64,000 nt of DNA from a virus. The number at the start of each line of letters is the position of its first letter. Positions within the stretch are counted from its first letter, which is position 1. The stretch spans positions 32,001-96,000 of the IMG/VR virus record IMGVR_UViG_3300011335_000775. The stretch is one strand, 5' to 3'. Shown piece by piece: positions 11,331 to 32,144 of this stretch. The position numbers and the translations under genes were made by a program. Below the pieces are notes generated by a model. It saw nothing but the letters and a program-made list of their open reading frames with translations. It had not been told where the DNA came from and did not search any database.

Positions 11331-13652
11331 ATGACACAAATCACAGTTATTAAACGTAACGGAAGAAAAGAACAATTAAGCCTAGAAAAGTGGCAAACCC
11401 AAATTGCCAAAGTATGTTCAGGCATAGCAGATGTAAGTCAAAGCATGGTGGAGATCAAAGCCCAGATGCACTTTTATGATGGCATCACTACCAAAGAGAT
11501 CGACGGCGTTACACTCCGAGCCATAGTAGATCTAATTGACATTGAACACAATCCAGATGTTGGACATACCAACTATCAATATGTGGCAGGCAAGCAACGT
11601 CTTAGCATGTTGCGCAAAGACGTATATGGATCTTATGAAGTTCCCCACCTGTATGAGATTGTGAAGAAAAACGTATCCACAGGCTTGTACACCCCGGAAC
11701 TGTTGGAATGGTACGACGAAGCTGACTGGAATCGCATGCAGGACATGATAGATCATTCCAAGGACGAGCAATACGGTTATGCTGCAATTGAACAATTGAT
11801 TGAAAAATATCTAGTAAAGAATCGTGCCACAAAGGAAACTTATGAAACTCCCCAAGTTCGTTACATGGTTGCAGCAGCCACAGTTTTTCATTCGGAAGAA
11901 CCCAACACGGCTCGTATGCGATACATCAAAGAATACTACAATGCTGCTAGTGATGGTCTTTTTACTCTTGCTACTCCTGTGTTGGCTGGTCTGGGCACTC
12001 CTACTAAACAATTTAGCAGTTGCGTTCTTATTCGGAGTGATGACGACCTTGATAGTATCTTTGCAAGTGGTGAAATGATGGCCAAGTATGCCAGCAAACG
12101 TGCTGGCATTGGACTGGAGATTGGACGACTGCGACCATTGGGTAGTCCCATTCGAGGTGGAGAAATCATGCACACTGGCATGATACCATTTTTGAAGAAA
12201 TGGTTTGGCGACTTGCGTAGTTGTTCACAAGGGGGAATCCGTAATGCTAGTGCTACTGTATTTTATCCTATTTGGCATCATCAGTTTGATGACCTTATTG
12301 TTCTTAAGAACAACCAAGGAACAGAAGAAACCCGTGTTAGACACATGGACTATGGTGTGGTTCTATCCGCATTTTTCTGGCGCAGATTCAAGAACAAAGA
12401 GAACATAACATTCTTTGACCCCAACGAAGTCCCAGACTTGTATGAAGCTTTCTACAAGAATACAGAACTATTTGAAGAACTGTATGTGAAGTATGAAAAA
12501 CAAAAAGGTCTACGCAAAAAGACCATGAGTGCAGAAGAAGTATTCAAGTCGGGCATACTAAAAGAACGCACAGATACAGGACGTATCTATCTAGTGTTCA
12601 TTGACAACGTGATGAAACAAGGACCATTTGATCCCGAATATCATACCATTTACCAGAGTAACTTATGCTGTGAAATTTTATTACCTACTCGCTCTTTTAA
12701 ACGCCTGGATGATAGTAATGGGCGTATCGCTTTATGCACGTTGGGATCGCTCAACTGGGGAGCCTTCCGTAATCCAGAAGATATCAGGCGTGCTGCCCGT
12801 ATTTTGCATCGCAGTCTTAACAATATTCTTGATTATCAGGACTTTTTATCTATACAGTCTAAACTAAGCAATGATGAAATTAGACCACTGGGTATCGGCA
12901 TCACTAACCTGGCATACTGGCATGCAAAAAGAGGTCTCAAATACGGTGAAAAAGATTCCCTAGCTGAAGTCAAAACTTGGATGGAACACATGGCATTCTA
13001 TCTCACCGAAGCCAGTGTTGAGCTAGCACAAGAGCGTGGCGCTTGTTTGGGCAGTGAACACACACGGTATGGCAACGGTGTATTTCCGTGGGAACTCCGT
13101 GCAACAGGTGTGAACGAACTTACAGACTTTGTGCCTGAGTTGGATTGGGAAACCCTGCGTACTAATATGAAAGCACATGGAGTTCGAAATGCCACACAAA
13201 TGGCAGTTGCTCCTGTTGAATCAAGCAGTGTTGTTATTAACAGCACCAACGGTATTGAAATGCCCATGAGTTTGATCAGTGTGAAAGAAAGCAAAGCAGG
13301 ATCATTTGTACAGGTTGTTCCTGAATATCATAAACTTAAAAATAAATATCAACTGATGTGGGAACAGAAAGATTGTGAGAGTTATCTCAAAACCGCTGCG
13401 GTCATTGCAGCGTATGTTGATCAATCCATCAGCACCAATACTTTTTACAATCCTGCACACTGGGAAGATCGTAAAGTTCCTACCACATTGATAGCAAAGA
13501 ACTTAATGCAATCACATGCGTGGGGGTTGAAGACCTTTTACTACAGTCTTATTAACAAACAAGGTAGTAAAGCAACAGCAGAAGATGCTCCCACAATGTT
13601 GGAACCAATCAACTTTGATAATGAAGAAGATTGTGAATCGTGTAAACTTTAA
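11331..13652 (+). CDS. nrdA: Class Ia ribonucleotide reductase alpha subunit
   Basis: ATP cone, FSSCVL, SNLCCEI, C-terminal CESCKL. Confidence 0.97.
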   Translation: MTQITVIKRNGRKEQLSLEKWQTQIAKVCSGIADVSQSMVEIKAQMHFYDGITTKEIDGVTLRAIVDLIDIEHNPDVGHTNYQYVAGKQRLSMLRKDVYGSYEVPHLYEIVKKNVSTGLYTPELLEWYDEADWNRMQDMIDHSKDEQYGYAAIEQLIEKYLVKNRATKETYETPQVRYMVAAATVFHSEEPNTARMRYIKEYYNAASDGLFTLATPVLAGLGTPTKQFSSCVLIRSDDDLDSIFASGEMMAKYASKRAGIGLEIGRLRPLGSPIRGGEIMHTGMIPFLKKWFGDLRSCSQGGIRNASATVFYPIWHHQFDDLIVLKNNQGTEETRVRHMDYGVVLSAFFWRRFKNKENITFFDPNEVPDLYEAFYKNTELFEELYVKYEKQKGLRKKTMSAEEVFKSGILKERTDTGRIYLVFIDNVMKQGPFDPEYHTIYQSNLCCEILLPTRSFKRLDDSNGRIALCTLGSLNWGAFRNPEDIRRAARILHRSLNNILDYQDFLSIQSKLSNDEIRPLGIGITNLAYWHAKRGLKYGEKDSLAEVKTWMEHMAFYLTEASVELAQERGACLGSEHTRYGNGVFPWELRATGVNELTDFVPELDWETLRTNMKAHGVRNATQMAVAPVESSSVVINSTNGIEMPMSLISVKESKAGSFVQVVPEYHKLKNKYQLMWEQKDCESYLKTAAVIAAYVDQSISTNTFYNPAHWEDRKVPTTLIAKNLMQSHAWGLKTFYYSLINKQGSKATAEDAPTMLEPINFDNEEDCESCKL

Positions 13653-13665
13653 AGGAAAAAAACAC

Positions 13666-14577
13666 ATGAAAAAATTATTAGTTATATTAAGCGTATTGGT
13701 ATTGGCGGCGTGTAATAAAGCACCTGCTCCTACTGCAACATCAAACACATTTACTCCTACTTTTGTAGTAGACTACAACAAGTGTGGAACTGATCCGGTC
13801 ATCTCTGGAAACTCGGTAACATTTGGTGAAGGAACAAACTGTGCAGCAGGTAGACTTGTATCCGAACAAGGATATGTAAACATCACACAGATCAAAGCAA
13901 CAGTTGATTTGTCAAAACTTGCACAGAACTATGTTAATGCCAGTTTGTATATGATATCAAATCCAGTTCAGCCTGGTGTTCAACCCAAGGGCACCAACTA
14001 CTGTGATGCAGGTGGAAATAATAATCAATGGAATTGCCAAGAGATTGATATCATAGAAACAAATGGTAACAAGATTACACAATCTACTGTGCATCTAGGT
14101 ACAGGTGGGTCCAGTGCTCCACAACGGTTTGAGTATTCATTTGCAGAAACTGCCAACAACAGTTGCTTTAACTATTCGTCAATGACCAGCTCAACCACTG
14201 CGACCAATGGGTTACATAACATGGTTGGTGTCATCGATATGACCAAGCCATTTGATATGGTAACTGATTTTACATACGGAACAACTCCTACCATGACAGT
14301 GACATATTCACAGGATGGCAAGAGCGTGGTAGTATATAATAGTTTGATTGGTTCAGGTGCAGAAGGTAGTGGTACTGTGGATATGACTTTGTTGACAACT
14401 AGCATGAAGAATGGTTACTGGTTGAATCTAGCATTTTGGCAAGGTTACAGCCCAACAGGTCCTGGTTCAGCACCATGGTGGAACAACAGTTGTTCATGGG
14501 GTGCATTATGCAACAGCACAGGATCATACTGGAGCATAAGCAACATTCAAGTAACTGCGGATAGTGTAATAAAATGA
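13666..14577 (+). CDS. Lipoprotein with GH7/GH16 (clan GH-B) glycoside hydrolase motifs
   Basis: Lipobox LAAC; YCDA...CQEIDIIETN (ExDxxE); IDMTKPFDMVTDF. Confidence 0.7.
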   Translation: MKKLLVILSVLVLAACNKAPAPTATSNTFTPTFVVDYNKCGTDPVISGNSVTFGEGTNCAAGRLVSEQGYVNITQIKATVDLSKLAQNYVNASLYMISNPVQPGVQPKGTNYCDAGGNNNQWNCQEIDIIETNGNKITQSTVHLGTGGSSAPQRFEYSFAETANNSCFNYSSMTSSTTATNGLHNMVGVIDMTKPFDMVTDFTYGTTPTMTVTYSQDGKSVVVYNSLIGSGAEGSGTVDMTLLTTSMKNGYWLNLAFWQGYSPTGPGSAPWWNNSCSWGALCNSTGSYWSISNIQVTADSVIK

Positions 14578-15677
14578 GCCACGCTCAATACGATCTAACT
14601 ACCAAGACAGATTATTTAACTCGCAAGATGTTTCTGGATCCAGCGGGTCCAGTCACTATTCAACGCTTTGAAGAAGTCAAATATCCCAAAATTGCCAAAC
14701 TTGAAGAAACAGCCCGCGGATTCTTTTGGCAACCAGAAGAAATTAGTCTCAGCAAAGATGCCAACGATTTCAAAGATGCATCAGACGCAGTGAAGCATAT
14801 CTTTACCAGCAATCTGTTACGTCAGACTGCCCTGGACAGTTTACAAGGACGTGGACCCACACAAGTATTCACTCCGGTATGCAGTTTACCAGAAGTAGAG
14901 GCATTGATGTATAACTGGGGATTCTTTGAAACAAATATTCACTCAAAGAGTTACAGTCATATCATTCGTAACATCTATAACGTGCCTAAAGATGTTTTCA
15001 ATACAATTCATGACATAACTGAAATTGTAGGCATGGCGTCAAGTGTAGGCCTATATTATGACAAACTCCACGAACTCAATTGCTTCAGAGAGATCAATCC
15101 AAAAACAGTCAATGAGAAACAACATATCAAGGCAATCTGGATGGCATTGCATGCCAGCTATGCACTAGAAGCATTCCGGTTCATGGTTTCATTTGCCACC
15201 AGTTTGGCCATGGTTGAAAATAAAATCTTCATTGGCAATGGCAACATCATTGGGTTGATTCTTCAAGACGAGTTGTTGCACAAAGGGTGGACTGCATATC
15301 TTATCAATCAAGTTATCAAAGAAGACAGCCGTTTTGCTGACATTAAAGTAGAGTGTGAACAGGAAGTATATGCCTTGTATATAGATGTGATTCGTGAAGA
15401 AAAAGCCTGGGCTGATTATTTGTTCAAGATGGGGCCAGTGATTGGACTCAATGCCAACATTCTCAAAGACTTTGTGGATTACACCGCAGTTGGTGCGCTC
15501 AAAGATATTGGCATCAAGTATCAAGCAGCGGCACCGCGTAGCACACCTATTCCTTGGTTTAACAAGCATTCAGACACGTCGAAGAAACAGTCGGCCTTAC
15601 AGGAAACAGAAAGCACAAACTATGTGATTGGAGTTATGTCAGAGTCGTTAGACTATGATCAGTTACCTGACCTTTGA
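14574..15677 (+). CDS. nrdB: Ribonucleotide reductase beta subunit
   Basis: [41 protein letters not shown]. Confidence 0.96.
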
Positions 15678-16228
15678 GGGCAATTATTAAAATGATATCG
15701 ATGCATTGCATTTGATCCTCCAGATTTATTACAATGCGGACAAGTTATTTGTTCTTGTGGGCTAATGGTTTTACCTTTCATTGGACTCGGTAATCCTTTG
15801 TTCCAGGCAGGAAGTTTATTTTTAATACCAAGGCGCCCTTTTCCTGCTGCTGCTGCATGCTCGAGAGATTTTGATTTGCCTTTATACAGTAAACTGAGAT
15901 TGCGTTTAAATTCTATACTTCTGACAGATCCTACTGCTCCATAACCTCCGTTAGCTCGATTATGAAGAATTCCATTATCAAGATCTTTCCGACCATACCA
16001 TTTAATCATGCGACGTTCGATAGCAAACGCCCCGATCTCGTTGAGATTAGATTCAAGAATAATAATTCTATCAGCGTCTTTTGGAGTATGAACTCCGCTG
16101 GTTTTTCCTCTGTGTTGCACCCAGGCACGAGGGCCATGCCCTTTGCCGATATAATAAGGTGTGCCATCTTTTCTTAGATAGGCATACACATAAAACCCTT
16201 TGGGATGAGAATTTTTGTTTAAATACAT
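15659..16228 (-). mobile_element. Free-standing GIY-YIG homing endonuclease, antisense between nrdB and glutaredoxin
   Basis: [19 protein letters not shown]...R; PAWNKG repeat-like tail; CPHC zinc ribbon. Confidence 0.8.
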
Positions 16229-16296
16229 TTGCTGATGCTCCTTCAAAGCGTTAGAGTAGTTGGGAATTCCACTTCCGCGAACTACACCTATATTTA
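16229..16296 (-). promoter_or_regulatory. Late promoter and two-hairpin leader of the endonuclease
   Basis: TAAATA, GTAGTT..AACTAC hairpin, then GCT-TTGAAGG-AGC enclosing the RBS. Confidence 0.55.
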
Positions 16297-16313: not shown

Positions 16314-16562
16314 ATGACAAAAGCCATCGTCTGGTCAAAAGACAATTGCACATTCTGCGATCAAGCCAAAGCATTGTTGCAGCAGAGAAACATTGCATAT
16401 GAAGAACGGAAAATTGGATACGGATACAGTCGAGAAGACTTGTTGGAGTCTGTGCCCACAGCAAGAACATTACCACAAATTTTTGTGAACAACAACCACA
16501 TCGGCGGGTTCACAGAACTAAGAAAATACATCGAAGAAACCGCCGGCGGCTACGGGGATTGA
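16314..16562 (+). CDS. Glutaredoxin
   Basis: CTFC, TLPQIF, IGGFTEL. Confidence 0.92.
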   Translation: MTKAIVWSKDNCTFCDQAKALLQQRNIAYEERKIGYGYSREDLLESVPTARTLPQIFVNNNHIGGFTELRKYIEETAGGYGD

Positions 16563-17497: not shown

Positions 17498-17713
17498 ATG
17501 GGACATAGATTTGTAATCATGCGGCATGATGAGATTGAAGTATATGATTGCTATGACGATATCCCCGATGACCTAGACCATGTGATAGAATTTGTTCCAG
17601 AAATACCTCCGGAGCCGCATACTAAACAGCAGCACCAAGAAATAGATGCTTGGCTAGGTCTCTTTAATAGACTCATGGAGAAAGCATATGCGACCAGTGG
17701 CAAGATTGGGTGA
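17498..17713 (+). CDS. Hypothetical protein
   Basis: Late promoter 4 nt upstream. Confidence 0.65.
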   Translation: MGHRFVIMRHDEIEVYDCYDDIPDDLDHVIEFVPEIPPEPHTKQQHQEIDAWLGLFNRLMEKAYATSGKIG

Positions 17714-17975
17714 TCAAGGAGTTCCTCATTGCAGTGGATTTACCATTGCACAGGGCAGTGCTACGGTATTTGTCAATTCAAAACCGGCAGCCAGAGTTGG
17801 GGATCAGAGCACTCCTCATCTTAGACCTGGCAACCCGTGCCCTGCACATGTCGCTCCTATTTCTAGTGGAAGTTCTAGTGTGTTTGTTGATGGCATTGCG
17901 TTGGCAAGAGTGGGTGATGGACTGGCTGGTTGTACCGCAGTGGCCACCGGCAGTTCAGATGTATTTGCAGGATAA
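17688..17975 (+). CDS. PAAR-repeat tail spike tip protein
   Basis: PVARLGD, PAARVGD, ARVGD repeats with His/Cys metal ligands. Confidence 0.9.
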   Translation: MRPVARLGDQGVPHCSGFTIAQGSATVFVNSKPAARVGDQSTPHLRPGNPCPAHVAPISSGSSSVFVDGIALARVGDGLAGCTAVATGSSDVFAG

Positions 17976-17978
17976 CAC

Positions 17979-19901
17979 ATGGCCACTGGTATATTAACTC
18001 CTTTACAAATGATTGCCGGTGCTGCACTGAGCAGCAATAGCGGTGTTGAGATTGCCAACACATGGACTGCCGCGGTCAATTCATATACTGGTACAACATT
18101 ACTCACACCATTCTTTGCTGCTGTGGCCAACTCATCAGCAGCCAATATCAGTGCTAATACATTGACCAGTATGTTTACATTTTGTGCCAGTACTGTGCCG
18201 GCATTGGCTGACAATACTCCTGCGGCATACAGCGGACTTGGAACCAATATCTCTGCTGGATTTACTGGAATAGTAACTACTCAAGGCAACAGTTATCTTG
18301 GCAATGGCAACAACACTGTATTTGCACAAGTATTCCCAGCAGCACAGGGATATGTGGTTGCCACAAATAGTTATATCAACAGCAGCATTAACAGTCAAAC
18401 TTATTTGGGATCAACATTCACCAGCATGAATAGTTTGATCACTGGCAATCTCAGTGATGCCACGTTGGCCATGCGATCATTTGGTACTGATCTAACTGCA
18501 TTGGGACAAATGATTGATCTTGACAATCTTGGTAACTTTGGATCACCTGCTGCACTGCTACGTCGATTGGCCACACTGACCAATATCACTCCGGGAGTAA
18601 GCAATGCATTAACGCAAGCTGGAATCAACCAGGCCAATATCAACAACATAGTAGATCCAAATGTCAACGTTGATGACAATGTACAACGACTGGCATACCT
18701 GGGCATGGTAAATGTCACAGGTACAGACCTGGAGCAAGTGTTGGCAGTATTTGGTGTAAAAACGCCTAACATAAACACCATGGCTGATTTGTTAAATCCT
18801 GTCAAGATTTTCCCCAACAGTTATCCCAGTCTCACAGTGAGAACTTACAGTCAAGATACATCAAGTGTATTGCGGGCAATCTACGATAACAATCAAGGTA
18901 CTGTAAATTCAAAACTGTTGATTTATTTGCCACAATATATTTTGGTTACCGGCAGCAGCGATATGATCACATATCACCGACTGAGTTTGATTGTACCACC
19001 AGACCAAGCATTAGCGTCCAAGGCTATTCAAGTCAGCTTGCAACAGATCAAGAACATTAATAATATGAGTTTGACACAGTTGGCCGCAGCGTTCACCAAC
19101 ATGCAGACCACTCGAGATCTTGATCTCATCAGTTCGTTGCCGGAGGCAGTACCTCCATCTGTGGCAGCATTTTATTCCAGTACATACGCAACTGGATCAG
19201 GTCCAAATGGAACATTGGTCATAACAGATCTGTTGGGAGCAGCAGTAGGAGTACCATTTACCAGTGACCTTACCAATGTTACCACCACAATCAACAGCAT
19301 GACTTTGGATGGAATATTGACCACATTAACCGGCACTTATGTGAGAATGGAAAACACAGTGAACGGTGTTTACAATGTAGGTAATGTTGTGATTATTCCA
19401 CCCGGACCGGGTGCAGGCACTTATGGCAATGCAGATGCTGCATTGAATGCATTGATCAGCAACGCAGCAGTGGAAGTGGCCAGTATTGAAAGTTCTTATC
19501 CCACACAGTCCGGCGTGCTAAACAGCAATTTCATTGCCATGGCTGCTAATCTCAGTTCAGAACTTACCAATCTATCATTGGCCAGCATAGACATAGCCAA
19601 TTTGTCAACAACCGGTCGTGGCCCTATCATGAGCTTTGTACAGAGCCTGCCTGATTATGGAATCAACACTGAACAAAACGGTCCAACTCAATTTCTTGAA
19701 TCAGTAGCCGATCTCAACACACAAGGTGGGCAAGCCATAGTGGCCTGTTTGAGAGAAGGTAAAAATGTATCGGCGTTAGATGCTGCCGGTGCCGGACAAG
19801 ACACAGTGATTCCCAGCACACCCAGTTCGGTTCCTCCACGTGCAAACTTGATTCCGAGCACATACACCGACGCAGAAGCAGCCAATTTAGTTGTAAAATA
19901 G
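17979..19901 (+). CDS. Probable baseplate/tail structural protein
   Basis: 640 aa, rich in T/N/S/A, follows PAAR. Confidence 0.55.
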   Translation: MATGILTPLQMIAGAALSSNSGVEIANTWTAAVNSYTGTTLLTPFFAAVANSSAANISANTLTSMFTFCASTVPALADNTPAAYSGLGTNISAGFTGIVTTQGNSYLGNGNNTVFAQVFPAAQGYVVATNSYINSSINSQTYLGSTFTSMNSLITGNLSDATLAMRSFGTDLTALGQMIDLDNLGNFGSPAALLRRLATLTNITPGVSNALTQAGINQANINNIVDPNVNVDDNVQRLAYLGMVNVTGTDLEQVLAVFGVKTPNINTMADLLNPVKIFPNSYPSLTVRTYSQDTSSVLRAIYDNNQGTVNSKLLIYLPQYILVTGSSDMITYHRLSLIVPPDQALASKAIQVSLQQIKNINNMSLTQLAAAFTNMQTTRDLDLISSLPEAVPPSVAAFYSSTYATGSGPNGTLVITDLLGAAVGVPFTSDLTNVTTTINSMTLDGILTTLTGTYVRMENTVNGVYNVGNVVIIPPGPGAGTYGNADAALNALISNAAVEVASIESSYPTQSGVLNSNFIAMAANLSSELTNLSLASIDIANLSTTGRGPIMSFVQSLPDYGINTEQNGPTQFLESVADLNTQGGQAIVACLREGKNVSALDAAGAGQDTVIPSTPSSVPPRANLIPSTYTDAEAANLVVK

Positions 19902-29163: not shown

Positions 29164-29411
29164 ACCGTATTTGGGTAGAGCTCGATGGCACTGAAAAGTG
29201 GTACAAGATCATTGCCGAAGCCAATCGTGAATTTGGTATTCGTGGATGGCGCGGCCAATCAGGTGCCAAGCGCCGATTAGATCGCACACGTACTTGGCCA
29301 TCCTTGATCAAAACCACCCAACGTGTGTGGTTTGATGTGCCTGACGAAAAGTTTGCAACTTGGATAGCTATAAAGTATGCGGTAACGGTGCTTGCATCAC
29401 CCGGTAAATAA
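29160..29411 (+). CDS. Hypothetical protein (alternative start 29085)
   Basis: MHRIWVELDG...FATWIAIKY. Confidence 0.6.
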   Translation: MHRIWVELDGTEKWYKIIAEANREFGIRGWRGQSGAKRRLDRTRTWPSLIKTTQRVWFDVPDEKFATWIAIKYAVTVLASPGK

Positions 29412-29415
29412 TCTT

Positions 29416-30945
29416 ATGTTTCTCAGTCTTATTACTTTAGCTGTGGCCCTGGGGCTCAGCATCATTGCTGCATATTACAGCATTGCTGGGCTCACAGCCA
29501 TTTTTGCCTCAGCTGTGGTACCCATTATAATCATGGGCTCTATACTAGAGTTAGCCAAAGTTGTAGTCACATTATGGTTACACGAATACTGGGCACGATG
29601 TCGCTGGCTAATGAAGCTGTATCTAGTGCCAGCAGTGATCATGCTGATGTTGATTACCAGTATGGGTATATTTGGATTCTTGTCAAAAGCTCACAGTGAT
29701 CAAAGTTTAGTATCAGGTGATGTCACAGCAAAGATTTCCATATATGATGAAAAAATCAAGACTGAGAAGGAGAACATAGATGTTAGTCGTAAATCCCTTA
29801 AACAAATGGATGAGGCCGTGGACCAAGTTATGGGTCGTAGTTCAGACGAAAAAGGTGCAGACAAGGCTGTGGCTGTACGCCGTGGCCAACAAAAGGAGCG
29901 TCAGCGCCTGCTTGCGGAAATCTCAGAAAGTCAAAAACGTATCACAGCACTTAATGAACAACGTGCTCCTATTGCTGCCGAAGTTCGCAAAGTTGAAGCA
30001 GAAGTAGGACCAATCAAATATATTGCTGCACTGATCTACGGCGATAATCCCGACGTTAATATCCTGGAACGTGCTGTACGTTGGGTGATCATCCTGCTGG
30101 TATGTGTGTTTGACCCCTTGGCCATAATGATGTTGTTGGCTTCCACTGAAAGTTTAAAGTGGGCTAGAACACCACCAAAGAAAGAAGTCCAGGAAGAAAT
30201 TCCTGAAGATGGATACAAAACACCTTGGTCAGAGTCAGTTACTGAATCAGAAGAAAAGGACTTTGACGTAAATGATCATCCATACTTGTTTACAGCACCG
30301 GGCGGTACTAGTCCACCGGGCATAGACCCTGCCCCAATACAGGTATACAACGAGCCCGGCGAAGAAACATTGGAGCCTTGCTATAAGTGTGGCACACCAT
30401 TAATTAATGCGCCTGGTATTGGACCGTTTTGCCCAAACAAAGAATGTGATGTTGTTGATAGTTGGGCTTTACAAGATAATGAACCAGTCAAGATAACATA
30501 TATCTCACCAACTGCACATCTTGATGACGAACGTTATGATGATGACAGTCCCGAGATGAAACAGGCCAAAGCACAATGGAAAGCTGACAACCCAGGCGAC
30601 ACTCTCAAACGACATCGTTACCTGCTTGAAACAGGATCAATCGATCAGTTGCCATGGATGCAATATCTAAACAAATTGCCCGAATCGGGATTTGGTCCTG
30701 TGCTGCCCGAGTACGGTTCCAAGGGTGATACATTTATATCCACTATAGGGATCCCACATCGGCTATATAAACATAATGGTACCGAGTGGATCAACATTGA
30801 CAATACTCAACAACACAGCTATACTTACGATACAGCCTACATTGATCATTTGATCAGTCAAATTGAAAAAGGTCTATACGACCCCGACATGCTGAATGAT
30901 AGCGAACGTGACCAGATTGAACAACGAATAACACAAAATAAATGA
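29416..30945 (+). CDS. Multi-TM membrane protein with coiled coil
   Basis: N-terminal TM helices, heptad region, CYKC..CPNKEC. Confidence 0.7.
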
Positions 30946-32144
30946 CCAAAGAAACATATACCTCTTGCAGCTTTTGTGGCAAGAACAAAGACTCAGTTAA
31001 AAAACTCATAGTTGGTGAATACGCAGGTATTTGTAACGAATGTGTGGAATTTTGTCGAGATCTACTTACAGATGAACCAGTTGTAACTGTCCCTGACCAT
31101 CCATCAGACAAGATGGATCCTATTGCTTTAAAGAACTATTTGGATCAATACGTGATTGGGCAACATGCTGCCAAAATCATGTTGGCCGTGGCCATTGTAA
31201 ATCATTACAAACGCATCAGCAAAACCACAGCGGAGCCCGAACTAGACAAGGCCAATATCTTGATGTTAGGACCCACTGGGTCAGGTAAAACATTGTTGGC
31301 CAAATCAGTGGCACGTTATCTTGACGTTCCGTTTGCCATTGCAGATGCAACATCAATCACAGAAGCAGGCTATGTGGGTGATGATGTGGAAAGCCTTATC
31401 AGCAGACTATACGCAGCATCGGGTAATGATGTGGCCAAAACACAGCAAGGTATTGTGTTTGTGGATGAAATTGACAAGATCTCTCGCAAAGGAGAATCAA
31501 CTTCGATCACACGTGACGTATCCGGTGAAGGTGTACAGCAGGCCTTGTTAAAGATGGTCGAAGGTACAGTATGTCGTGTGAGTGCCGGCGGCGGACGTAA
31601 ACATCCAGGCGGTGAAATGATTGAAATTGATACCAAGAATATCTTGTTCATTGCCGGTGGCGCCTTTGTGGGACTAGACAGTATTGTAAAGAACCGTGTG
31701 CAAGGCACCAGCATTGGATTCAATGCCAGGGTAGAAGCCAACATGGACACAGATCTGGGCATGACCACTCCGGATGATCTAGTAAAGTTTGGAATGATTC
31801 CTGAGTTTGTGGGACGTTTTCCTAACTGGGTCAGCTTGAAAGAACTTTCAAAAGCAGACTTGATCCGTATCCTTACCGAAGTCAAGAACAACTACATTGA
31901 GCAGTATCATTGGCTGTTTAAAGAAGATGGAGTGGAGTTGACATTTACAGCGCCTGCACTGGATCTTATTGCTGAACACACACTGGCCAACAAAACTGGT
32001 GCTCGTGGGCTGCATTCAGAACTGGAACGCACATTGATTCCGCACATGTTTAATCTACGTCGCTATGCCAGCACAGGTATCAAATGTTTGGAAATCGATC
32101 CTGCACAAGTAAACAAACCAACTGCACTAACAGGTACAGACTGA
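30942..32144 (+). CDS. clpX: ClpX AAA+ unfoldase
   Basis: C4 Zn finger, [34 protein letters not shown] loop. Confidence 0.95.

Follow-up and report, generated by a model that had tools for sequence, protein, structure and literature searches.

What would a bacteriophage do with a relative of a fungal-type cellulase encoded inside its ribonucleotide reductase operon? The question is raised by a 64,000-nucleotide stretch of viral DNA (the window; positions 32,001 to 96,000 of IMG/VR record IMGVR_UViG_3300011335_000775, which spans 113.8 kb with a CheckV completeness of 33%), in which a 303-residue protein, P0001, is encoded between nrdA and nrdB. A sequence-only reading had proposed that this protein is a lipoprotein resembling cellulases of glycoside hydrolase family 7 (GH7), a family that has been described as absent from bacteria. 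Translation and Pfam confirmed the open reading frame (ORF), its placement, and all of the motifs that had been listed, which are, in order, MKKLLVILSVLVLAAC at the N terminus (with the lipobox L13-A-A-C16), VDLSKL (residues 80 to 85), NASLYM (91 to 96), NYCDA (111 to 115), CQEIDIIETN (124 to 133), IDMTKPFDMVTDF (190 to 202), YSQDG (214 to 218), MKNGYWLNLAFW (247 to 258), and SNI (292 to 294). We argue, with good confidence, that P0001 is an exported, lipid-anchored miniature enzyme of the GH7 lineage, most likely a retaining endo-β-glycanase. What the analysis shows is the homology to GH7, the fold, the conserved residues, an export signal, purifying selection, and the place in the operon; catalysis, substrate, and benefit to the phage we infer.

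We found 161 metagenome homologues of P0001, none of which has a Pfam domain and which are called "hypothetical" where they are named. An alignment of 51 homologues with identities down to 46% (A1) contains 20 invariant columns, including Y95, Y112-C113-D114, C124, E126, D128, E131, N133, H143, Q216, and W252. Taken singly, P0001 returned no glycosidase from Pfam, just a weak match to LPAM_1, and none from PHROGs, where only its signal peptide was matched, by the spanin and Cor families. A phmmer search of the PDB gave azurin alone (1nwo, E = 0.07, residues 185 to 254), and azurin is also the JGI name of homologue P0007; we judged this label to be spurious, as it looks like a chance β-sandwich similarity propagated into annotation. 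With the A1 profile, the PDB yielded one match, 8pof_A, titled "Putative glycosyl hydrolase family7" (E = 1.5e-8 over 179 profile positions), in an alignment that runs through VDxS, YCDA, C-x-E-x-D-x-x-E-x-N, the histidine, IDxSKPF, and YxQxG to SxW. Against 1.84 billion representatives, the same profile gave 316 matches at E ≤ 1e-3, in three tiers: the family itself at 126 bits or more, a small intermediate tier at 63 to 76 bits, and many matches at 30 to 58 bits. When 20 remote matches were compared with Pfam, 13 passed the curated gathering cut-off of the GH7 family PF00840 (27 bits) with up to 129 bits, two scored below it, and five had no match; one further remote match combines GH7 with a fungal-type CBM1. 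Direct alignment by hhalign of A1 with a compact GH7 set (13 Pfam-GH7 proteins) gave a probability of 99.7% and an E value of 1.2e-25 over 202 columns, and the ESM atlas listed three viral "hypothetical" clusters, then a GH7 cluster (0.86), and then GH16 clusters (0.79 to 0.80). Judged on sequence, the resemblance to GH7 is far beyond chance. The intermediate scores of 63 to 76 bits, between the phage family and Pfam-positive GH7, include P0165 and P0171 (270 to 292 amino acids [aa]; from the protists Pirum gemmata and Mucochytrium quahogii), which have at most a subthreshold Pfam GH7 match; small GH7-like proteins of this kind may have a wider spread among eukaryotes than annotation reveals.

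The predicted structure is likewise closest to GH7. The AlphaFold2 model built from A1 has a predicted local distance difference test score (pLDDT) of 91.8 and a predicted template modeling score of 0.88, with disorder confined to the signal peptide and tether (pLDDT below 50 for residues 1 to 20). In Foldseek against the PDB, ranks 1 to 48 are all GH7 (best, 1eg1, E = 9e-11) and the first GH16 entry stands at rank 49; the best matches are thus neither an ordinary GH16 subfamily nor a fold outside the glycoside hydrolases. Realigning the Foldseek list with VIA-align gave 8pof a Z score of 18.1 (root mean square deviation, 3.6 Å; 243 residues aligned; 24% identity), ∼45 other GH7 entries Z scores of 16 to 17.4, and the GH16 enzyme VvEG16 a Z score of 15.3 over 184 residues. 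An exhaustive VIA search of 48,161 chains, independent of Foldseek, was likewise led by three GH7 representatives (Z scores of 18.1 for 8pof, 17.4 for Cel7B, and 16.1), followed by GH16 (14.5 to 11, with 8 to 14% identity) and then by lectins and lyases. Canonical GH7 enzymes (Trichoderma EG I [1EG1], Humicola Cel7B, and Cel7A) have the same fold and catalytic motif as the phage protein, with Foldseek E values of 9e-11 to 1e-7 and Z scores of ∼17 over 236 to 250 residues at 17 to 23% identity. They differ in size: fungal GH7 enzymes have 370 to 445 residues, with long loops that form cleft walls or a tunnel, and often a CBM1, whereas the phage domain has ∼277 residues and lacks most of these loops.

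The best structural match is itself small. RsSymEG1 (PDB 8POF), a 321-aa "smaller GH7 endoglucanase" from a protist symbiont of the termite Reticulitermes speratus, is an endoglucanase active on carboxymethyl cellulose (CMC) at 605 U/mg (PMC4885837). Both it and the phage protein are compact, with a very short stretch from YCDA to C-x-E-x-D-x-x-E-x-N, and they have in common ExDxxE, the histidine, the glutamine of YxQxG, and the SxW tryptophan. RsSymEG1, however, is eukaryotic and passes as GH7, whereas the phage protein stays below Pfam GH7 and carries a bacterial lipoprotein signal. We compared residues across 51 family members, 22 compact GH7 proteins, and six intermediates, all aligned to the hidden Markov model of the family. 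Y95, Y112, C113, D114, C124, E126, D128, E131, N133, H143, and Q216 are common to all 51 family members and essentially all 22 compact GH7 proteins; T141, G250, W258, W271, and C282 are nearly so (W258 is kept in 50/51 and 22/22, W271 in 46/51 and 19/22), and the six intermediates mostly keep these residues. The catalytic ExDxxE, which had been read as intact, is so throughout, with E126, D128, and E131 invariant in the family, and E126-I-D128-I-I-E131 aligns with ELDIWE of 8pof. In Cel7A, according to PDB titles, the active-site residues that have been mutated include E212, D214, and E217; in Cel7B, a glycosynthase mutation is placed at E197. By analogy with Cel7A, the conserved tyrosine, YCD, SxW, and W-L-D residues would bind sugar.

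The N terminus of P0001 has the makeup of a lipoprotein signal, with a basic n-region (MKK), a hydrophobic core (LLVILSVLV), and a lipobox (LAAC) that fits the pattern used, [LVI][ASTVI][GAS]C. In a crude pattern test of the N termini of 108 near-full-length homologues, 74 were lipobox-like, 29 had another hydrophobic stretch, and five probably had a miscalled start. From these N termini, the whole family is predicted to be exported, a lipid anchor being common and not universal. Six cysteines (C40, C113, C124, C167, C276, and C282) are conserved in A1 and fit an oxidizing, extracytoplasmic (periplasmic) location; a disulfide between C113 and the invariant C124 is predicted. Some family members of 441 to 455 aa (P0091 to P0093 and P0128) are extended at the N terminus, where Pfam found no carbohydrate-binding module and the matches, dockerin and FG-GAP-like, are weak; these members are probably cellular secreted forms. 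Pairs with unsaturated dS (0.36 to 0.76) have ratios of nonsynonymous to synonymous substitution rates (dN/dS) of 0.09 to 0.12, indicating strong purifying selection.

Taken together with the motifs, these results make it likely that the protein is an active glycoside hydrolase or transglycosylase of the GH7 type. During infection, the gene would share a transcript with nrdA and nrdB and be coupled to them in translation, and its preprotein would be exported by Sec, cleaved, and lipidated at Cys16, leaving the mature protein on a short Pro/Thr tether in the host envelope with its disulfides formed. The loop-poor domain of ∼277 residues would present an open cleft suited to endo-attack on a β-linked glycan. 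By homology, catalysis would proceed by retaining double displacement as in GH7, with E126 as the nucleophile, E131 as the acid/base, and D128 and H143 as helpers, and Y95, Y112, D114, W258, and W271 would bind the sugar.

Several observations weigh against this reading or limit it. PF00840 is not listed for P0001 at E ≤ 10 and is not reached at E ≤ 1 by any of the 51 homologues, so that the relation is a distant one, and the structure-based identity to GH7 is just 20 to 24%. Lipidation is a prediction, and the Pfam LPAM_1 match has only 13 bits compared to a cut-off of 20. Gly116 replaces the glutamine of the YCDAQ motif of GH7 and 8pof, and substrate contacts may differ; moreover, the family-specific invariants D36, R63, N135, Q153, Y224, and W252 have no GH7 counterpart (N135, Q153, Y224, and W252 also set the phage protein apart from RsSymEG1) and may point to a different specificity. 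In the loci described below, the gene has no recurrent neighbor with a link to cellulose or glucan. Lastly, GH7 and GH16 enzymes together act on many glycans, and the fold does not fix the substrate. Of the original proposal of a membrane-anchored GH7-like glucanase in a phage, the analysis supports a compact, exported, GH7-like phage protein with its ExDxxE intact, whereas membership in Pfam GH7 is not reached, the anchor is predicted, and the suggested action on host or periplasmic glucans would be a possibility.

A substrate of the β-1,4-glucan type is our tentative choice, by analogy and at somewhat less than an even chance, because RsSymEG1 is CMC active and because the conserved tryptophans and Y/YCD residues are kept. 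An active GH7-fold enzyme that cuts something else, or that is mainly a transglycosylase, is a serious alternative, if on the unlikely side. Candidates would be mixed-linkage or β-1,3-glucan, xylan or xyloglucan, chitosan, an O-antigen or capsule repeat, periplasmic β-1,2-glucans, and peptidoglycan. The invariants absent from GH7 and the Gly116 replacement fit such an enzyme, as does the breadth of the clan member GH16, whose substrates in PDB titles include laminarin, lichenan, agar, carrageenan, xyloglucan, and mucin glycans, and the neighboring genes give no substrate hint; yet RsSymEG1, the nearest relative with a solved structure, is an endoglucanase active on CMC, a cellulose-binding CBM1 is present in one near relative that Pfam recognizes as GH7, and both tryptophans and the Y/YCD residues of compact GH7 are retained. 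For the GH7-lineage glycanase that we prefer, candidate substrates include a cellulose-type exopolysaccharide, glucan in periplasmic transit, and dissolved β-glucan. Cutting exopolysaccharide or transit glucans could ease release, avoid the trapping of progeny, or block superinfection; alternatively, the infected cell could be fed from dissolved glucans. A role in remodeling the host envelope or exopolysaccharide is possible but somewhat doubtful, and nutrient scavenging is less probable still; the neighborhood of the gene does not discriminate between these benefits. Other glycoside hydrolases of viruses (tail depolymerases and auxiliary metabolic genes) are likewise phage borne and predicted to cut glycans, but unlike tail depolymerases the GH7-like protein is not in a tail fiber or spike, carries a lipoprotein signal, and is encoded in a nucleotide metabolism operon.

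This operon position is frequent among viral relatives. The gene has a relative on 109 IMG/VR contigs, including contigs of 231, 267, 303, and 524 kb. Among the best 80 viral loci, 31 have the order nrdA, GH7-like gene, nrdB, grx, as here; 28 have nrdA, nrdB, GH7-like gene, grx; and one is cut by a contig edge. The gene thus lies in the nrd operon in 59/80 loci, whereas in 20/80 neither nrd nor grx lies within 6 kb of it, including some of the nearest relatives of P0001 in the tree (L024 and L028; 68 to 74% identity). Neighbors in the latter loci are genes for superoxide dismutase, GNAT, DnaJ/ClpB, radical-SAM proteins, thioredoxin/AhpC, GMP reductase, and a GH19-GNAT fusion, and no functional partner is constant across the viral loci. 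The varied gene orders and the loci without nrd indicate that the gene has changed place, inside the operon as well as from one genome region to another.

Given these surroundings, the protein might be the product of an auxiliary metabolic gene, releasing sugars from dissolved algal or plant β-glucans that feed the cell and hence the nucleotide synthesis served by nrd and grx. The linkage to nrdA, nrdB, and grx in most loci, the metabolic and stress genes beside it elsewhere (superoxide dismutase, thioredoxin/AhpC, GMP reductase, and radical SAM), and its occurrence as an ordinary chromosomal lipoprotein gene in Halieaceae all speak for this idea, which we nevertheless consider unlikely: no transporter, β-glucosidase, or other downstream sugar utilization gene is linked to it in viral or Halieaceae loci, a periplasm-facing lipoprotein would not reach external polymers, and the nrd linkage may be the inherited synteny of one phage lineage, being absent from a quarter of the loci. 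We find it very improbable that the protein is a noncatalytic glycan-binding lipoprotein for superinfection exclusion or receptor masking, like Cor or Llp. A lipoprotein from an early/middle operon of a lytic-type phage would suit that role, as would the weak PHROG matches to spanin and Cor-type lipoproteins (E = 0.015 to 0.05), but these matches are confined to the signal peptide (residues 1 to 30), and the invariance of E126, D128, E131, and H143 in 51/51 members down to 46% identity, with a dN/dS of ∼0.1, would be unexpected for a mere binder.

The chance that the protein is an ordinary bacterial GH16 laminarinase or lichenase sharing merely ExDxxE with GH7 is negligible, and this reading is already contradicted: GH16 has the same fold and motif, GH16 clusters appear in the ESM atlas, and the best, though weak, matches among BFVD viral structures are GH16-like or jelly-roll proteins (E = 6e-6 or worse, 7 to 14% identity), but neither P0001 nor any of the 51 members matches Pfam GH16 (PF00722), none of 21 scanned remote matches did so while all of those with a Pfam hit were GH7, and GH16 structures align over ∼50 fewer residues with lower Z scores. 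GH16 enzymes (laminarinases, lichenases, xyloglucan endotransglycosylases, and VvEG16) share with the phage protein the clan GH-B jelly roll and the E-x-D-x-(x)-E strand, with Z scores of 12 to 15 over ∼185 to 200 residues, and hhalign aligns GH16 with the phage family around the catalytic strand only; what it has in common with the compact GH7 set instead is the YCD motif, the pair of C113 and C124, and the tryptophan motifs toward the C terminus. The suggestion of a GH16/GH7 evolutionary intermediate has to be given up as well. Compared to a GH16 set of ten domains from Pseudomonadales genomes, A1 gave an hhalign probability of 67% (E = 5e-5, 69 columns) and the compact GH7 set one of 70% (E = 4e-5, 66 columns), and this equal distance puts the family on the GH7 side of clan GH-B.

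How far, then, does the family extend beyond phages? In a motif-seeded scan that covered 185,579 prokaryotic species with one genome apiece and would miss divergent members, four relatives were confirmed, all in Halioglobus or Haliea assemblies (Halieaceae) and 55 to 58% identical. There the gene is single and chromosomal, among housekeeping genes (uvrB and purEK in one genome, an M28 peptidase gene and SCO1 in another). A PF00840 search of 401 Pseudomonadota genomes found nothing, a weak negative given that its positive control was also silent; a Haliea genome that encodes a family member gives no PF00840 match. Neither blastn nor tblastn found a relative in 50,697 GenBank phage records, and no account of a GH7-like family from phages or bacteria came up in our literature search. 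In a quick maximum-likelihood tree with an arbitrary root, the Halieaceae sequences group as a single clade (support, 100), whose nesting among the viral sequences is modestly supported (85 to 92); with such a root, no direction between eukaryotic and viral forms is claimed. The family is mainly viral and, on the basis of its own clade below the PF00840 cut-off, would be classed as a viral and bacterial sister subfamily of GH7.

The features of the gene and its operon are collected in Table 1.

Table 1. Coordinates, in the window, of the GH7-like gene, its functional elements, and its operon neighbors
Feature	Position	Strand	Basis or remark
nrdA, upstream neighbor in operon	11331..13652	+	Pfam Ribonuc_red_lgC, E = 2e-111
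AGGA ribosome-binding site, 10 nucleotides before ATG 13666, immediately 3' of nrdA stop (13650-13652)	13653..13656	+	Sequence
GH7-like lipoprotein coding sequence (P0001, 303 aa)	13666..14577	+	Translation; 161 homologues; dN/dS ∼0.1
Type II signal peptide (KK n-region, hydrophobic core, lipobox L-A-A-C)	13666..13713	+	
Cys16, predicted lipidation site	13711-13713	+	
Pro/Thr/Ala-rich tether NKAPAPTATS, from anchor to folded domain	13714..13743	+	First β-strand at residue 27
β-Jelly-roll catalytic domain, residues ∼27 to 303, clan GH-B fold, closest to GH7	13744..14574	+	AlphaFold2, VIA
YCD motif, Y112-C113-D114	13999..14007	+	51/51 family, 21-22/22 compact Pfam-GH7
Catalytic motif, E126-I-D128-I-I-E131	14041..14058	+	51/51 family, 22/22 compact GH7, 6/6 intermediates
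H143, conserved GH7 active-site histidine	14092..14094	+	Invariant in family, compact GH7, and intermediates
W258 ... W271, aligned with GH7 tryptophans (SLW / SWLD)	14437..14478	+	
nrdB, downstream neighbor	14574..15677	+	Pfam Ribonuc_red_sm, E = 1e-38
Glutaredoxin (confirmed by Pfam), conserved last gene of the nrdA / GH7-like / nrdB / grx block	16314..16562	+	

The stop codon of the GH7-like gene overlaps the start codon of nrdB (ATGA), and this overlap, together with the ribosome-binding site that follows the nrdA stop, suggests that nrdA, the GH7-like gene, and nrdB form a single operon with coupled translation. A longer alternative ORF from 13585 was rejected in favor of the start at 13666, because it overlaps nrdA and because the homologues start at MKKLL. 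We found neither an enrichment of the T4 late promoter motif TATAAATA in the window nor a copy near the gene, a sigma-70 promoter scan of the window did not rise above shuffled sequences, and a terminator scan did (14 compared to 6.0; standard deviation, 2.9), yet no plus-strand site flanks the gene.

The nrd operon is a hot spot of insertion and rearrangement. Variable inserts separate nrdA from nrdB by 0.2 to 0.8 kb in loci L029 to L031 and L034 to L041 and the GH7-like gene from nrdB by 0.85 to 1.6 kb in L042 to L051. In the related phage contigs L008 (1-2776) and L009 (1620-5986), tblastn found nrdA in two pieces, ∼1.4 kb and 2 kb apart, which suggests an intron, intein, or endonuclease insertion. 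In the window, a 195-aa ORF (15659-16246, minus strand) runs toward nrdB and shares the final 19 bases of that gene; Pfam has no match for this ORF, which PHROG 314, "homing endonuclease," does match (E = 2.6e-10). A fragment 58% identical to it lies ∼0.9 kb upstream of the GH7-like gene in L074, a locus that is unrelated in other respects. Mobile genes appear to use the nrd region as a landing site. Farther downstream, a PAAR-motif protein (17688-17975, plus strand; Pfam E = 1.5e-17) directly precedes a 640-aa Ala/Ser/Thr-rich ORF (17979-19901) without a PHROG match, and a tail or baseplate module probably starts right after the nucleotide metabolism block.

As for the phage itself, its nrdA is closest (54 to 59% identity) to those of Xanthomonas, Ralstonia, and Stenotrophomonas myoviruses. 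A 517-aa protein (29392-30945, plus strand) matches Pelagibacter phage Mosig, where the match overlaps an annotated "putative glucosaminidase," as well as the 300- to 440-kb jumbo phages XacN1, Xoo-sp13, CM1/RAS14, RsoM2USA, and SCTP-2; hosts of these XacN1-type matches are Xanthomonas, Stenotrophomonas, Ralstonia, and Salicola. Together with the LAAC-type lipobox, these matches point to a jumbo myovirus of a freshwater proteobacterium as the source. The window contains no tRNA genes that would hint at the host, and the cultured phage relatives lack the GH7-like gene according to tblastn.

A well-conserved miniature GH7 relative, under selection and present in more than 100 aquatic phage contigs and a few marine gammaproteobacteria, carries the GH7 lineage into viruses and prokaryotes, opens the origin of GH7 to phylogenetic testing, and, at ∼277 residues, provides a minimal scaffold on which the contribution of the GH7 loops could be studied. 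A bolder view, to which we give little weight, is that the family was not acquired recently from eukaryotes but is a deep prokaryotic/phage branch of GH7 close to the compact ancestral form, with phages as its reservoir and possibly its vector, and with a phage-specific job on an envelope glycan. If this were true, aquatic phages would stand behind the patchy spread of GH7 among eukaryotes, and the enzyme would act on a glycan that no GH7 enzyme is known to cut. For the biology of these viruses, the family provides an example of a lytic-type giant phage that would export a predicted lipid-anchored glycanase to the host envelope from a nucleotide metabolism operon, for purposes that may include envelope or exopolysaccharide remodeling, release, exclusion, or feeding.

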